A stretch of DNA of 64,000 bases from contig DATAVK010000077.1 in the NCBI GenBank assembly GCA_036267755.1, positions 7,855 to 71,854 of the forward strand, given 5' to 3'. Positions within the stretch are counted from its first letter, which is position 1. Every line of letters begins with the position of its first letter. The DNA comes from Mycobacteriales bacterium. GTDB lineage: Bacteria; Actinomycetota; Actinomycetes; JAFAQI01. Below, one piece after another: positions 3,182 to 62,778 of the stretch. The position numbers were made by a program, and so were the translations under genes. Under the pieces are notes generated by a model. It did not search any database. It worked only from the letters and a program-made list of their open reading frames with translations, and was not told the DNA's origin.

Positions 3182-4206
3182 CCGCAGCGGTGGATTCGAC
3201 GGCGTCACCGGCGACCCTCGACTCGGCGAGGATTCGCCGGGCCCAGCGCGGCGGCATCTGGATCCTGCCGATCTCGGTGCTCGTCGTCCTCGCGCTGGCC
3301 TACGCGCCGTATGCCGTGACAGAGGGCCACACGAACACGCTGGTGAACTTCTTCATCCTCCTGGTCGTGGGGGTCATGTGGAACGTGCTCGCCGGCTTCG
3401 CCGGGCTGGTCTCGGTCGGCCAGCAGGCCTACATCGGGCTCGGCGCGTACTCGGTGCTGGTGCTGGCACAGCACGGGCTGAATCCGTTCCTCGCGCTGCC
3501 GCTCGGCATCCTCATCTGCGCGGTCGCCGCGATCCCGGTGTCGTTCGTGGTCTTCCGGCTCCGCGGCGGATACTTCGCGATCGGGACCTGGGTGGTCGCC
3601 GAGGTGTTCTACCTGGTGACCATCAAGTTCGCCTCGCTGGGCGGTGGCACCGGCGCATCGCTACCGGGGCTGAACTACAGCGCGACGGTGCTCGCCGCCC
3701 TCACTTACTGGGCCGCGCTGGCCGTGGCCGTTCTCGCGCTGCTTTCGGCGTACCTGCTGCTGCGGAGCCGGATCGGGCTGGCGCTGACCGCGGTCCGTGA
3801 CAGTGAGGTCGCCGCCGCGAGCGTCGGCGTTCGGGTGTCGCGAGCCAAGCGCATCGTGTACGCGCTGGCGTCCGCTGGCGCGGGCGGCGCAGGAGGCCTG
3901 CTCATCATCAGCCAGCTCAACGTGCAGCCGAGTGACACCGTCGGCGTGTACGGCGTGAAGTGGTCGGCGTACATGCTGTTCGTGGTGCTGATCGGCGGGA
4001 TCGGGTCGCTGGAGGGGCCGATCCTCGGCACCATCGTCTTCTTCGTGCTGCAGCAGACCCTCGCCAACTACGGCGCCTGGTACCTCATCATCATCGGCGT
4101 GGTCGCCATCGCGATGGCGATGTTCCTGCGACGGGGGCTGTGGGGTCTGGTCGAGCGCAGCGGGCTACGGCTGTTCCCGGTCGGCTACTGGGTCCGAGAA
4201 CCCTAG
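3178..4206 (+). CDS. livM: HAAT-family ABC transporter permease (LivM-like)
   Basis: ATG at 3178 overlaps livH stop (ATGA). Hydrophobic LivM-like sequence (GQQAYIGLGAYSVLVL...). Confidence 0.8.
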   Translation: MTAAVDSTASPATLDSARIRRAQRGGIWILPISVLVVLALAYAPYAVTEGHTNTLVNFFILLVVGVMWNVLAGFAGLVSVGQQAYIGLGAYSVLVLAQHGLNPFLALPLGILICAVAAIPVSFVVFRLRGGYFAIGTWVVAEVFYLVTIKFASLGGGTGASLPGLNYSATVLAALTYWAALAVAVLALLSAYLLLRSRIGLALTAVRDSEVAAASVGVRVSRAKRIVYALASAGAGGAGGLLIISQLNVQPSDTVGVYGVKWSAYMLFVVLIGGIGSLEGPILGTIVFFVLQQTLANYGAWYLIIIGVVAIAMAMFLRRGLWGLVERSGLRLFPVGYWVREP

Positions 4207-4207
4207 G

Positions 4208-4253
4208 TTTGTGAACCGCTACTGCCCGCCGGCGGTAAGCGGCAGTTCACAAA
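4208..4253. terminator. imperfect hairpin between convergent livM and rhodanese genes (TTTGTGAACCGC...GCGGCAGTTCACAAA)
   Basis: Inverted repeat seen directly in the sequence, located between convergent gene ends. Likely a bidirectional terminator. Confidence 0.4.
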
Positions 4254-4630
4254 GCGATGGTCGGGAGGCCTTGAGCACGCCAGGCGCGGTAGCCGCCGTC
4301 GAGATCGGTCGCGCGATAGATCCCCAACTGCTGCAGCGACACGGCGGCCAGGCTGGACGCGTACCCCTCGTTGCACACGATGACGATCCAGGCGTCGTAC
4401 GACGCCATCGGAAGCCGCGCGTCGGAGGCCGGATCGAGCCGCCACTCCAACACGTTGCGGTCAATCACGAGGGCGCCGGGGATCTCGCCCTCGGTCACCC
4501 GGTTGGTCTCGGGCCGGATGTCGACGAGGATCGCGCCCGCTGCGACTGCGTCGAAGGCCTCGCGAGGCCGCAGCCGCCTGATCAGCTGGCGGGCGTCGCT
4601 AAGGACGTCCTCGATGGAGGGGGCAGTCAT
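4247..4630 (-). CDS. rhodanese-domain sulfurtransferase
   Basis: 127 aa with a rhodanese-like active-site region (IVIVCNEGYASS). Start overlaps the downstream cysteine dioxygenase gene stop. Confidence 0.8.
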   Translation of the reverse strand: MTAPSIEDVLSDARQLIRRLRPREAFDAVAAGAILVDIRPETNRVTEGEIPGALVIDRNVLEWRLDPASDARLPMASYDAWIVIVCNEGYASSLAAVSLQQLGIYRATDLDGGYRAWRAQGLPTIAL

Positions 4631-5148
4631 GCCGTCGGCTCCGGTTCGTTCGTCAGTGCGGTGTGACGCACTCGCAGCCCCGTGGGCGCGGTGTCGTAGA
4701 ACGTCATGGCTTGCAGTGGGGGCGAATAGGCGTGGATGCTCACCGCCGGGAGCGCGGAGGGGTTGCTGACGTCGTGGATGACGTCGGGGGCGACCTCGCG
4801 GGTGCCACCGGAGTGCAGAGTCGAGAAGGTCCTCGCGTCACGCTGCCGGGAGGCGCGGACCTCGCTGAGCGTTCCCTCCACGACCGTGAAGGCCGCAGCG
4901 GACCCGCCGTGATCGTGGAAGTCCGTGCCGGTGCCGGTCAGCCAGGTCAGCAGCCAGACCTCGACATCGTCGTCGGAGCGGAGCCGGGTCCACCACCGCT
5001 CGTTCGTCCCGAACTGGACCAGCGGCATCCACGAGGCGGTGTCGGCGGCGACCTCACGGACGATGGCGGCGAGCTCCGTCGTGGGGAGCGGCGGCCGCCT
5101 GACCCGGAGGGTTGCAGAAGACGTCATGACTAAAGCGTACCGAATCAC
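4627..5148 (-). CDS. cysteine dioxygenase type I-like cupin
   Basis: Cupin metal-site residues (FHDHGGSAAAF). Rhodanese-CDO pairing is common in actinobacteria. Exact start uncertain. Confidence 0.7.
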   Translation of the reverse strand: MIRYALVMTSSATLRVRRPPLPTTELAAIVREVAADTASWMPLVQFGTNERWWTRLRSDDDVEVWLLTWLTGTGTDFHDHGGSAAAFTVVEGTLSEVRASRQRDARTFSTLHSGGTREVAPDVIHDVSNPSALPAVSIHAYSPPLQAMTFYDTAPTGLRVRHTALTNEPEPTA

Positions 5149-5792: not shown

Positions 5793-6716
5793 ATGAGCCA
5801 GCGCACGGCACCCAGCGGTCAGCAGTGGCCGATCCGGCACGGTGACCACCAGGCGGTCGTGGTCGAGGTAGGCGGTGGCCTGCGCAGCTACCAGGTCGGG
5901 GACCGGCAGGTGCTTGACGGGTACGACGTCACGGCGATGGCGGACGGCGCCCGCTGCCAGACGCTGGTGCCGTGGCCGAACCGGGTGCAGGACGGGGTCT
6001 GGCACCACGATGGCACCGCGATGCAGCTGACCTTGACCGAGCCGGAGCAGCGCAACGCCATCCATGGTCTGGTGCGATGGGCCGCGTGGACGGCGGTCGA
6101 GCGCTCCGACGCCGCGGTGACCGTGAGCTGCAGGTCGTACCCCCAGCCGGGTTACCCGTTCGCGATCGAGGTGAGCAACGCCTGGTCGCTGTCCGACACC
6201 GGCCTCGAGGTCGTCACCACGATCGTCAACCGCGGCGGTGCGCCGGCGCCGGTGGCGTGCGGGTTCCACCCTTACATCACTGCTGGTACTCCGACGGTTG
6301 ACACGGCGACGCTGCACCTGCCGGCCGCCAGCTATCTCCCCACCGGCGCCCAGCAGATCCCCACCGGTCGGGAGAGCGTGGCCGGCACGCCTTACGACTT
6401 CCGCGAGCCGCACCCGATCGGCGACCTCCAGATCGACCACACCCTCACCGACCTCGCCCGCGACGCGGACGGCCGGTTCCGGCTCCGGCTGACCGGCGAG
6501 CGCGAGGTGACGGTCTGGATGGACGAGGCCTATCCCTACGTGGAGGTCTTCAGCGGTGACGCGCTGCCAGATCCCGCACGGCGACGGCAGGGACTCGGCA
6601 TCGAGCCGATGAGCGCCCCGCCGAACGCGCTCGTGACCGGTGAGTCGGTGGTCTGGCTGGCGCCTGACCAGTCGTGGCGTGGCACCTGGGGTATCGAACC
6701 GATCGCTGCGGGGTAA
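5793..6716 (+). CDS. aldose 1-epimerase family protein
   Basis: 307 aa with galactose mutarotase-like motifs (NAIHG, GFHPY). Confidence 0.75.
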   Translation: MSQRTAPSGQQWPIRHGDHQAVVVEVGGGLRSYQVGDRQVLDGYDVTAMADGARCQTLVPWPNRVQDGVWHHDGTAMQLTLTEPEQRNAIHGLVRWAAWTAVERSDAAVTVSCRSYPQPGYPFAIEVSNAWSLSDTGLEVVTTIVNRGGAPAPVACGFHPYITAGTPTVDTATLHLPAASYLPTGAQQIPTGRESVAGTPYDFREPHPIGDLQIDHTLTDLARDADGRFRLRLTGEREVTVWMDEAYPYVEVFSGDALPDPARRRQGLGIEPMSAPPNALVTGESVVWLAPDQSWRGTWGIEPIAAG

Positions 6717-58464: not shown

Positions 58465-58541
58465 GCGATGATCATGACGCTCTCGTCGCGAAACACCGAC
58501 GGCTCGCCTGCGCGTTCCGACGAAAGCGTCATGATCATCGC
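58465..58541. terminator. long inverted repeat (24-bp arms, 1 mismatch; core ATGATCATGACGCT) between convergent genes
   Basis: GCGATGATCATGACGCTCTCGTCG ... CGACGAAAGCGTCATGATCATCGC with a 29-nt loop, seen directly in sequence. Overlaps the 3' end of the phosphatase gene. Confidence 0.5.
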
Positions 58542-59524: not shown

Positions 59525-60805
<1,281 letters not shown>

Positions 60806-60810
60806 ACCCT

Positions 60811-60862
60811 CGGTTTGTGCAGGCTGCGCCGTCACCCGTTGCCGCAAAGTCTGCACAAACCG
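60811..60862. repeat. about 52-bp repeat copy 1 containing a perfect 12-bp stem hairpin (CGGTTTGTGCAG...CTGCACAAACCG), immediately after the cysM stop
   Basis: About 85% identical to the copy at 61878..61930. Stem-loop seen directly in sequence. Confidence 0.7.
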
Positions 60863-60933
60863 TCAAGACGCCGCTGTCCACAGATCTGTCGGAGGCGTTG
60901 AGAGCAACAGCGCCGTGACATGACGCTGGGTTG

Positions 60934-61935
60934 ATGCTCAATCCGCGGCGCGATGTCGGCCTCTTGCACCTCGGCCAGGACACCGGCGGAGCTGTGCATC
61001 TGGACGAGTGTCGGGCCGCCACTGTCGGCGACGACCGCACCGGATACCTCGTCGAATCCGGCCGTTGGCAGTCGCCGTACCCGCGCGTGTTCGTCACGTT
61101 CAGCGGCCCCATCCCTGCATTGACCAGGCAATATGCCGCTTTGCTGTACGCCGGCGAAGGTGCCGTCCTGAGCCACGAGACCGCGGGCGCAGGCTTCGCG
61201 CTGTGCCGAGAGCCCGAGCTGATTCACGTCACCGTGCCCTATACGCGGGAGGTGGAGGACCAATCGGGACTCAAGATCCACCGGTCCCGCACGCTGTGTC
61301 GCGACGACTGCCATCCCGCACTGTCGCCCGCGCGGACGACCGTTGAGCGGACGATCCTCGATCTGCTGCGTCATCGACGTACGGCGGATGCCGCCCTCGG
61401 ACTGGTCGCCGATGCACTTCGGTGCCGATTGACGACACCAGACCGGCTCCGCGCCGCTTTGGAGCAACGGCCGCGCACACGTTGGCGACGGGTGGTAGCC
61501 GCGGCATTGCCCGATCTGCAACGTGGGGCGCAATCCCCTCTTGAGATCCGCGACGCACGGATTAGGCGAGCCCACGGACTGCCGCCGGGGCGTCGACAGG
61601 TACGACGCTTGCGGGATGGCACGGAGTATCTCGACGTTGTGATCGAAGAATGGGGCCTGCATGTCGAACTGGACGGCCGGCTCGGCCACGACCGAGCTCG
61701 TGAAATCTGGAGGGACATGCGGCGGGACAACGCAAGCGAGGTTCGTGGCATGGCCCATCTGCGCTACGGCTGGGCCGACCTGGTCGATCGACCGTGCGAG
61801 GTAGCGAGGGAGCAGGCTCGAGTGTTGCGCCGCCGGGGCTGGTCGGGGCGATTTCGCCGCTGTCCGGCGTGCCCACTCGGATTTGTGAAGGGTGTGCCGT
61901 CACCGGTGGCCGCTAAGTCTGCACAAACCGAATAG
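60934..61935 (+). CDS. DUF559 (Vsr/restriction-endonuclease-like fold) protein with N-terminal AbiEi-like domain
   Basis: C-terminal DUF559 pattern (YLDVVIEEWGLHVELDGRLGHDRAREIWRDMRRDNASEVRGMAHLRYGW). The last 11 codons are encoded by repeat copy 2. TTG at 60931 is an alternative start. Confidence 0.65.
   Translation: MLNPRRDVGLLHLGQDTGGAVHLDECRAATVGDDRTGYLVESGRWQSPYPRVFVTFSGPIPALTRQYAALLYAGEGAVLSHETAGAGFALCREPELIHVTVPYTREVEDQSGLKIHRSRTLCRDDCHPALSPARTTVERTILDLLRHRRTADAALGLVADALRCRLTTPDRLRAALEQRPRTRWRRVVAAALPDLQRGAQSPLEIRDARIRRAHGLPPGRRQVRRLRDGTEYLDVVIEEWGLHVELDGRLGHDRAREIWRDMRRDNASEVRGMAHLRYGWADLVDRPCEVAREQARVLRRRGWSGRFRRCPACPLGFVKGVPSPVAAKSAQTE
61878..61930. repeat. about 53-bp repeat copy 2 (CGGATTTGTGAAG...GCCGCTAAGTCTGCACAAACCG), degenerate hairpin
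   Basis: Direct repeat of 60811..60862. Forms the 3' end of the DUF559 ORF, just upstream of murI. Confidence 0.7.
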
Positions 61936-61944
61936 ATTGGGGGG

Positions 61945-62778
61945 GTGGATGCACCGCTCGGCATCTTCGACAGCGGGGTCGGAGGCCTGACCGTCGCCCG
62001 CGCCGTGTTGGACCAACTCCCGGCGGAACGCATCGTCTACGTCGGCGACACTGCCCACCAGCCGTACGGGCCGCGCCGGATCGCGGACGTCCGCCGGCTC
62101 GCCCTCGAGGTGATGGATGCGCTCGTCTCCGAGCACGGTGTGAAGCTGCTCGTCATCGCCTGCAACTCCGCCAGCGCCGCCTGCCTGCGCGACGCCCGCG
62201 AGCGCTACGACATCGGTGTCGTCGAGGTGATCCAACCCGCGGTACGCCGGGCTGTGGCAGCGACCCGCAACGGCAAGATCGGCGTGCTCGGCACCCGCGC
62301 CACGATCGACAGCCAAGCGTACGACGATGCCTTCGCCGCGGCGCCGCACATCGAGCTCACGACAGTCGCCTGCCCGCGCTTCGTGGAGTTCGTCGAGCGC
62401 GGCGACACCAACAGCGCGGAGCTGTTGCAGGTCGCGCAGCAGTATCTGGCGCCGATCGTCCACGCCGGCTGCGACACCCTCGTCCTCGGCTGCACCCACT
62501 ACCCGCTGCTCACCGGCGTCATCTCCTATGTGGTGGGCGACGCGGTGACGCTGGTGTCCAGCGCGGAGGAGACCGCCAAGGACGTCTATCGCGAGCTCGC
62601 CCGCACCCAGGGCTTCCGCGATGAGGACCTGCCGCGTCCGGTTCACGAGTTCTTGTCGACGGGCGACCCGGAGCCGTTCGAGCGGCTGGGCCGGCGGTTT
62701 CTCGGGCCGGAGGTGGCCGCCGTCGCTCATGCCAGCCGCACCGAGGCCGGCCCCGGCCGCGCGGATCTCAGCGCGTGA
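61945..62778 (+). CDS. murI: glutamate racemase
   Basis: MurI motifs ([29 protein letters not shown]). GTG start after a G-rich stretch. Confidence 0.9.

Follow-up and report, generated by a model that had tools for sequence, protein, structure and literature searches.

We analysed the junction between cysM and murI in a 64-kb stretch of DNA from a Mycobacteriales bacterium (contig DATAVK010000077.1; the whole 64,000-nt stretch is hereafter called the window), where a single gene for an AbiEi-like, DUF559-like protein lies between two hairpin-forming direct repeats of ~50 bp. Our preferred reading, which we rate slightly above even (probability roughly 0.55), is that the segment at 60811-61930 is long resident and belongs to a large actinobacterial family of nuclease cassettes, bounded by hairpins, that are mobile, or at least were so formerly. 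Its descriptive part, i.e., that this is an old, vertically retained family member and that such cassettes have colonised housekeeping gaps, is well supported, and we further infer that the cassettes are, or were, selfish mobile units. Hairpin–gene–hairpin is the common architecture among the examined loci of a very large family, and this is the main addition to an initial annotation of the same DNA. As we read it, a complete cassette would begin with a 5′ hairpin and a brief leader containing the TCCACA motif, followed by a gene joining an AbiEi-like winged helix-turn-helix (wHTH) to a Vsr/DUF559-like domain and by a 3′ copy of the hairpin, in whose left arm the stop codon normally lies.

The gene order at the locus is cysO, cysM, hairpin copy 1, a 71-nt leader, one open reading frame (ORF), hairpin copy 2 and murI, with the following features:

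59855-60805, + strand: cysM-type cysteine synthase (PALP, TIGR01136), upstream flank outside the cassette, TAG stop at 60803-60805
60811-60862, + strand: hairpin copy 1 (5′ boundary repeat), CGGTTTGTGCAGG...CCTGCACAAACCG, 6 nt past the cysM stop
60877-60882, + strand: TCCACA leader motif, 51 nt 5′ of the start codon
60934-61935, + strand: AbiEi-like/DUF559-like gene, 333-aa product, sole ORF between the hairpins
61878-61930, + strand: hairpin copy 2 (3′ boundary repeat), overlapping the 3′ end of the gene and ending 14 nt before the murI start
61886-61888, + strand: ancestral TGA stop in the left arm of copy 2, now out of frame
61945-62778, + strand: murI glutamate racemase, downstream flank outside the cassette, GTG start at 61945

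The two copies share 88% identity across 49 ungapped nt, with starts 1068 nt apart and one extra base in copy 2, which confirms the pair of ~50-bp hairpin repeats around one gene between cysM and murI that the initial annotation had described. They share the 16-mer AAGTCTGCACAAACCG, which occurs twice in the 64 kb when none would be expected by chance (direct count and blastn); no further copies of the ~50-nt repeat were found in the window beyond these two, and a blastn-short search for it in 80 related genomes returned no match. The outer stem of copy 1 (CGGTTTGTGCAG/CTGCACAAACCG) pairs perfectly, and its predicted fold (-29.4 kcal/mol, z = -4.9) was equalled in stability by 0 of 200 shuffles. 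The fold of copy 2 is weaker (-21.7 kcal/mol, z = -1.5).

Hairpin pairs across the gene family

Comparison loci (L-numbers below) came from a MurI-anchored scan of one GTDB genome per species, which gave 80 loci, and from a separate metagenome scan, which added more; the closest homologues, L081, L082 and L083, were retrieved by an exact-protein look-up. A hairpin pair of its own was found at 16 of the 21 family loci examined, i.e., at the window and its close members (L081, L082, L084, L085, L086, L168, L169, and L171) and at distant members that are 29-46% identical (L010, L094, L048, L004, L027, L068, and L003). Among the loci without a full pair, L104 and L035 retain a single hairpin, L083 lacks copy 1, and no hairpin is present at L002 or L100. 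One metagenome-assembled genome holds three paralogues, located after dnaG, ogt, and secG, each with its own pair of 45-54-nt hairpins. For 8 of 10 close family genes, alignment of the upstream against the downstream flank scored 44-72. The 73 neighbouring genes used as controls averaged 19.4 +/- 2.8, with a maximum of 27, and mismatched, non-orthologous pairs did not exceed 27 either. Across the ~1.35 Mb scanned, hairpins of the cassette class adjoin family genes with one exception, a solo hairpin at 4208-4253 of the window.

The leader is shared as well. TCCACA lies ~50 nt before the start codon at 10 of 10 close loci, paralogues elsewhere included, with the variants TCCCCA in L171 and CCCACA in L085. 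Since this motif recurs in paralogues at different loci, the conserved unit extends at least to within 2-21 nt of copy 1; the motif is possibly a promoter element or a protein site. At 50% identity, the family comprises 16,106 clusters at E ≤ 1e-3 and 6,016 at E ≤ 1e-10, and its members are named “DUF559 domain-containing protein”, “AbiEi antitoxin”, “very-short-patch-repair endonuclease”, or “hypothetical” in databases. We found no description of a hairpin-bounded AbiEi-DUF559 architecture in the literature on DUF559, on AbiEi and palindromes, on MTES_1575, and on actinobacterial free-standing homing genes, of which our coverage was incomplete.

The two hairpins of one locus are far more alike (within-locus similarity 79-93%) than hairpins of different loci. 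Among close subfamily members, each locus has an inner hairpin sequence of its own, and the outer stem, (GG)TT(T)GTGA.G...C.TCACAA(A)CC, is common to the 60-70% identical paralogues in the dnaG, ogt, secG, and cysM gaps, with a GTG...CAC core that is invariant; distant subfamilies in the same cysM-murI gap carry unrelated hairpins. By sequence comparison, the hairpin tracks the protein and not the locus. Eleven of 14 outer-stem pairs have changes on both sides, compensatory cells number 36 against 15 +/- 3 in shuffles, and 82% of cells are paired against 23-43% when stem partners are slid, so that, in the aligned hairpins, the stems are shown to be maintained by compensatory change. Stem mismatches display no bias (G-T 19, A-C 20), and because the two kinds are equally frequent there is no sign of the sense-strand RNA folding alone; a cruciform, or a duplex palindrome to which a dimeric protein binds, would be just as compatible.

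The stop codon of family genes usually lies in the left arm of the 3′ hairpin, and a perfectly pairing C of the 5′ copy corresponds, in the window, L081, L171, and L169, to an A of the 3′ copy that makes the TGA. Among the orthologues, conservation is higher for copy 2 (79-98%) than for copy 1 (73-77%), any given copy 1 is nearest to its own or a closely related copy 2 and not to other copy 1s, and a two-base difference (GTGACGGC vs GTGGCCGC) is common to both copies within lineages. These alignments hint weakly at homogenisation or co-selection of the two copies, a signal of only about 2-3 sites, most of which is explained by the slowly evolving copy 2.

The solo hairpin at 4208-4253 (TTTGTGAACCGC...GCGGCAGTTCACAAA) is 46 nt long, has a cassette-like TTTGTGA...TCACAAA outer stem, and lies between convergent genes for an ABC-transporter permease (+ strand, stop 4204-4206) and a rhodanese (- strand), with the rhodanese TGA within an arm. 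A homologous hairpin in L174, whose rhodanese is 92% identical, is found ~130 nt past the rhodanese gene, with a different downstream neighbour. The solo hairpin may be the remnant of a cassette since lost, a natural target, or simply an ordinary terminator. The rhodanese of the window is identical in sequence to that of an NCBI “MAG TPA: Mycobacteriales bacterium” and to that on several JGI and Logan soil metagenome contigs, and an uncultured Mycobacteriales member is the probable source of the window. An unrelated 59-nt hairpin at 58474-58532 is located between a DUF2017 gene and a convergent minus-strand gene, and long hairpins lacking T-tracts may be the usual separator of convergent genes in the genome from which the window comes.

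Other irregularities were noted at individual family loci. Reading frames are split in L081 (5909-6000), L002, L003, L035, L048, and L104, and in L081 a frame change separates the first ~30 codons from the remainder; the split copies fit decay, with assembly errors in metagenome contigs as an alternative. On its 3′ side, L027 has two or three tandem hairpins with the same arms (4589-4725, 5841-5887), and the flanking hairpins of L004 (4359-4417, 5405-5463) have common arms and loops that appear inverted, arrangements that hint at hairpin-mediated rearrangement.

We rejected an intrinsic (rho-independent) terminator as the identity of the boundary hairpins, as no T-tract follows them (the sequences directly 3′ are TCAAGACG and AATAGATT). 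No terminator-like site was found in 60600-62100, and the terminator-like character given to the hairpins by the initial annotation was not borne out by any canonical terminator score. Termination without a T-tract has been reported in actinobacteria, and the hairpins might also act as such terminators, insulating the neighbouring genes. No Rfam family matched the locus or the whole window, the window contains no tRNA genes that could be candidate integration targets, and no canonical promoters were detected, including no sigma-70-like promoter for the gene.

The encoded protein and its displaced stop codon

Because homologues begin at MLNP, the true start of the gene is taken to be the ATG at 60934. 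The protein is laid out as an AbiEi-like winged helix (about residues 1-200), a DUF559/Vsr-like nuclease domain (about 205-300), and conserved C-terminal cysteines. PADLOC AbiEi models match residues 6-186 (E = 2.6e-18), AbiEi_4 was matched by 8 of 29 relatives, and Foldseek aligned the first 160-245 residues of the full-length AlphaFold model (predicted local distance difference test score [pLDDT] 87.8) to AbiEi (6y8q) and Rv2827c (1zel) at E = 5e-6 to 2e-4. No Pfam or NCBIfam model scored above threshold on the window protein, DUF559 (PF04480) reaching E = 0.17 and 12.2 bits against a cut-off of 20.6. DUF559 was matched by 13 of the 29 relatives (best E = 1e-3) and the Vsr-type restriction endonuclease model MTES_1575 by 5, and the distant members L004 (22.1 bits) and L027 (23.2 bits) lie above the DUF559 cut-off.

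The modelled C-terminal domain (pLDDT 82.7) has 3hrl and 3r3p among its top six Foldseek matches, at weak E-values of 0.36-0.47. The TM-score on the target is 0.58 for 3hrl, a DUF559 structure (20% identity), and the TM-score for 3r3p (I-Bth0305I) is 0.52; these two structures belong to one PD-(D/E)xK Vsr/DUF559 clade (PMC3424549). PDB sequence searches with the single protein and with the family profile gave no match, and no HUH or DDE transposase domain was found in the protein or its relatives. Residues E232, D235, H244, E246, D248, G249, H253, D254, R261, D262, D266, and N267 are invariant in 29 sequences including the window, and we take the acidic/His pattern (..LD.. /.E.DG..H.. / D..RD) to be a DUF559 signature, with catalysis putative. 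Taken together, profile matches and structure models point weakly to a nuclease half in the window protein and better to one at the family level, and the domain reading appears reasonable. The AbiEi-like N-terminus proposed in the initial annotation was upheld by the PADLOC match, and the proposed DUF559 C-terminus only weakly, through the family. Compared to orthologues, the ratio of non-synonymous to synonymous substitution rates (dN/dS) is 0.07-0.15 (about 0.1), consistent with purifying selection.

DNA alignment with L081, L082, and L083 identified an 11-nt deletion specific to the window, between about 61879 and 61880, and because this shifts the frame, the ORF reads past the ancestral TGA and through the hairpin to the TAG at 61933-61935. 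Homologues are 316-321 aa long and end ~8 residues past a conserved CxxC; none has the PSPVAAKSAQTE tail, and the last 12-13 residues of the window protein are a frameshifted tail that is unique in the protein alignment. Orthologous genes terminate at the TGA within the left arm of copy 2 (..GATTTGTGAAGG..). The left arm reads GTGAAGG in copy 2 against GTGCAGG in copy 1, and this change makes the usual TGA stop of the family. Judging from these alignments, the tail is a lineage-specific accident, presumably harmless or mildly degenerate for the window protein. As first noted, the last codons of the ORF do lie in copy 2, but the peptide that it shares with an open frame of copy 1 is a frameshift artefact and not a meaningful feature: copy 1 yields it trivially because the copies are DNA repeats.

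The cysM-murI gap in relatives and signs of past mobility

In L081, L082, and L083, whose CysM is 94%, MurI 84-91%, and ORF 76-82% identical to those of the window, the same gene was found in the same place and the same orientation; L081 and L082 keep both hairpins, and the loss of copy 1 from L083 is clean. Because all of these loci hold the gene at the same site, with both repeats in two of the three relatives, the arrangement is ancestral to the window/L081/L082/L083 clade. By synteny, the gene has been resident between cysM and murI since before these lineages split, and is not a recent insertion. The site is empty or otherwise filled in L001, L088, L089, L092, L096, and L099 (CysM 84-86% identical). 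Overall, the lineage-restricted insertion in a conserved block (cysO-cysM / murI-MBL-rph) that the initial annotation proposed stands, but its recency does not, as the relatives with 94% identical CysM carry the gene. The ancestral arrangement that was named there as the opposing case holds within the window/L081-L083 clade, and the gene is absent from the next-nearest relatives.

Relatives at CysM ~85% have gaps of 24-1464 bp, with other content or none, and no single hairpin was seen at empty cysM-murI sites among them, relatives that are too distant to be decisive. The metagenome scan yielded three more loci with distant relatives of the gene and several empty gaps at ~85% CysM, none with such a hairpin. 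With no empty site found that carries a single repeat copy, the suggestions that the gene carries its own target or sits in a duplicated terminator were left unconfirmed. Across the 80 loci, the gap spans 8 bp to 3.4 kb and is a variation hot spot, holding an acyl-CoA thioesterase (L040), a phosphoribosyl pyrophosphate (PRPP)-synthetase-like protein (L056), a HAD hydrolase (L009), a RibD_C protein (L007), unknown membrane proteins (L001), or nothing. Eight of the 80 loci carry distant relatives (29-46%) of the window gene, mostly on the opposite strand.

Some gap contents are themselves repetitive, namely a tandem 47-nt repeat in L088 and long hairpins resembling miniature inverted-repeat transposable elements (MITEs) in L092, L126, and L019. 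A palindrome of the form ~GTGTGA(C/T)-N5-6-GTCACAC lies 5′ of murI in the cassette-free loci L088 (less exact), L092, and L099 and is absent in the window; it may be a regulator site. A -10-like hexamer, TA(G/C/A)ATT, is located 6-8 nt 5′ of the murI GTG in the window, L088, L092, L096, and L099, and in the window (TAGATT, 61933-61938) it overlaps the present stop of the cassette gene. Its position suggests that the murI transcript may be leaderless, with a promoter abutting hairpin copy 2.

Regarding past mobility, paralogues that are 64-66% identical occupy the same gap in opposite orientations, both at secG/pgl (L086 vs L171) and at cysM/murI (window vs L169). The window protein is 62-70% identical to paralogues elsewhere, compared to ~45% for the cysM-murI residents L002 and L104. 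Codon composition is atypical, with a G+C content at third codon positions (GC3) of 0.72-0.81 in the cassette gene vs 0.89-0.95 in flanking genes, and fourfold-site divergence is 0.54-0.68 in the gene vs 0.26-0.40 in the flanks, a comparison that is confounded by the lower GC3. In a profile search of the ~1.35 Mb of fetched DNA, family members were found only in the cysM-murI gap of the MurI-selected loci, and on this basis the gap is a preferred site.

As for a mechanism, AbiEi and Rv2827c bind inverted repeats near their own gene or promoter and thereby autoregulate (PMC7319586). By analogy with AbiEi, the palindromic repeats of the cassette would be sites recognised by the encoded protein, and its nuclease domain would cut at or near them, resulting either in excision and insertion or in cleavage of cassette-free alleles for homing-type copying. 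On the same analogy, and on that with Vsr-like homing endonucleases (PMC3424549), the protein probably recognises the palindromes of its own cassette and cuts DNA or nicks it. It is possible, if on balance doubtful, that the cassettes form a distinct actinobacterial class of mobile element, in which a wHTH-Vsr-type nuclease would process its own co-evolving ~50-bp palindromic terminal direct repeats as hairpins or cruciforms and enter housekeeping gaps either way round, with solo hairpins as scars.

Several points weigh against reading the segment as a cassette that is, or was, mobile. Paralogues are all 60-70% identical, with no near-identical copies, and no recent transposition was seen. Plasmid carriage was absent among 72,556 plasmids, a phage search gave one weak match (32%), and IMG/VR viral contigs gave none. 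The nuclease assignment of the window protein is weak (Pfam E = 0.17; Foldseek E = 0.36-0.47), and the stems fit RNA, single-stranded DNA, or a duplex palindrome/cruciform equally well. If the hairpins are element-borne, their high within-locus similarity combined with inner sequences that are fully diverged between paralogues needs homogenisation or a recent origin, and the solo hairpin at 4208-4253 adjoins no family gene and is conserved in a relative. The element ends taken here are putative, and long vertical persistence under strong purifying selection fits a domesticated host gene as much as a selfish one.

Known systems and rival explanations

Free-standing homing endonuclease genes (e.g., I-Bth0305I, 3r3p) resemble the cassette in placing a single nuclease gene in short housekeeping gaps, in their patchy occurrence, where intact, degenerate, and missing genes recall the stages of a homing cycle, and in encoding a Vsr/DUF559-clade nuclease, 3r3p and 3hrl being weak top structural matches of the cassette protein (PMC3424549). 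Occupied alleles (window, L081-L083) and empty or otherwise filled ones (relatives at CysM 84-86%) are both found, as for homing genes. However, no flanking ~50-bp hairpin direct repeats are known for homing genes, which are typical of phages, introns, and inteins, whereas the cassette has such repeats and its family is chromosomal, with no plasmid and one weak phage match. Moreover, homology-driven homing alone cannot give both orientations in one gap, which the cassette family shows.

Members of the IS200/IS605 group are small and have one main gene, with subterminal imperfect hairpins at both ends in the same orientation and no terminal inverted repeats. The cassette likewise has one gene and hairpins at both ends in the same orientation, but it encodes a wHTH and PD-(D/E)xK-type protein where IS200/IS605 elements encode an HUH Y1 transposase (TnpA), its paralogues are 60-70% identical where those elements occur in multiple near-identical copies, and its 3′ hairpin overlaps the stop codon. 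Insertion-sequence membership was rejected for lack of near-identical copies and of an HUH or DDE domain. For repetitive extragenic palindromic (REP) sequences and REP-associated tyrosine transposases (RAYTs), an extragenic palindrome flanks a single gene whose product is thought to recognise it, and repeat and protein co-vary, as they do in the cassettes. RAYTs, however, belong to the HUH enzymes, and a genome usually has a single RAYT and hundreds of dispersed REPs, whereas each cassette gene has a private pair, with one solo hairpin in 64 kb.

Integron cassettes consist of a single ORF followed by an imperfect palindrome of ~50-140 bp, and in arrays each ORF lies between two similar palindromes. 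The AbiEi-DUF559 cassette shares the ORF with a 3′ palindrome, but it has no integrase, attI, or array, occurs singly in housekeeping gaps, and has its own conserved leader. On inspection, an attC/integron origin was rejected, as the ends GGTTTGTG/CACAAACC misfit the R″/R′ consensus (RYYYAAC/GTTRRRY) and the context is that of a single cassette, and a dif/Xer-type model was rejected from the repeat ends and their context. Finally, the AbiEi antitoxins of S. agalactiae (6y8q) and M. tuberculosis (Rv2827c, 1zel) match the N-terminal ~200 residues of the cassette protein in fold and profile; unlike them, the cassette protein has an extra C-terminal nuclease-like domain, with palindromes at both gene ends and not at the promoter only. 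An AbiE type IV toxin-antitoxin (TA) system was rejected, with no AbiEii/DUF1814 toxin gene adjacent here and housekeeping neighbours at nine other loci.

The rival that survives best, which we nevertheless regard as unlikely, derives the repeats from the target: a pre-existing terminator-like palindrome would have been duplicated by the insertion, e.g., through cuts at both bases of an extruded cruciform and fill-in, leaving a very long target-site duplication. Near-identical copies at each locus with inner sequences wholly different between loci are exactly what it predicts, a palindromic target would naturally permit either orientation, and the solo hairpin between convergent genes, here and in a relative, with a host TGA in its arm, speaks for it as well. 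Yet cassette-free cysM-murI gaps are often 8-76 bp with no hairpin, so that no target is visible, and the outer stem and in-arm TGA are common to paralogues at unrelated loci. At three independent loci (window/L081, L171, and L169), copy 1 has C where copy 2 has A, a recurrence that is easier to explain with separately inherited ends, and ~50 bp far exceeds, to our knowledge, any known target-site duplication.

We give still less credence to a resident host gene, i.e., an anciently acquired AbiEi-type regulator or defence nuclease whose palindromes would be operators upstream and a terminator downstream, and whose patchiness would reflect differential loss, with no role for the repeats in mobility. 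This reading leaves unexplained why the 3′ hairpin resembles the 5′ one at 16 of 21 loci, why paralogues sit in many housekeeping gaps in both orientations, and why the window gene has greater similarity to paralogues at other sites than to the genes that occupy its own gap in related genomes; no AbiEii toxin partner adjoins the gene, whose neighbours are cysM and murI. It draws its strength from the autoregulation of AbiEi and Rv2827c via promoter inverted repeats (PMC7319586), from the strong purifying selection and the synteny in the nearest relatives, and from the lack of recent copies and of plasmid or clear phage carriage. Last, on a third rival reading, the hairpins would belong to a generic REP-like or terminator family with no relation to the gene and would lie on both sides by chance. 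This case against an insertion, which the initial annotation had itself raised, is largely refuted: one solo hairpin with the same outer stem and other long hairpins between convergent genes (e.g., 58474-58532) are in its favour, but the repeat is confined to two places in 64 kb where chance predicts none, hairpins of this class in ~1.35 Mb go with the gene family bar one case (with its orthologue in L174), and pairs surround family genes and 0 of 73 control genes.

The reading of the segment as an old, hairpin-bounded and at least formerly mobile cassette has consequences for a family that is very common in actinobacterial genomes and metagenomes and uninformatively annotated. If its members are selfish cassettes, much misleading annotation would be explained, the members being neither TA antitoxins nor Vsr repair enzymes, and a cause would be found for the variation at conserved operon junctions such as cysM-murI. 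Each cassette would then represent a matched protein and ~50-bp palindrome, with specificity variants available in nature, and the family may use a nuclease-based, hairpin- or cruciform-dependent form of DNA movement distinct from HUH, DDE, and recombinase systems. On a conservative reading too, the co-variation of flanking palindromes with a DNA-binding protein provides a testable case of protein-site co-evolution.

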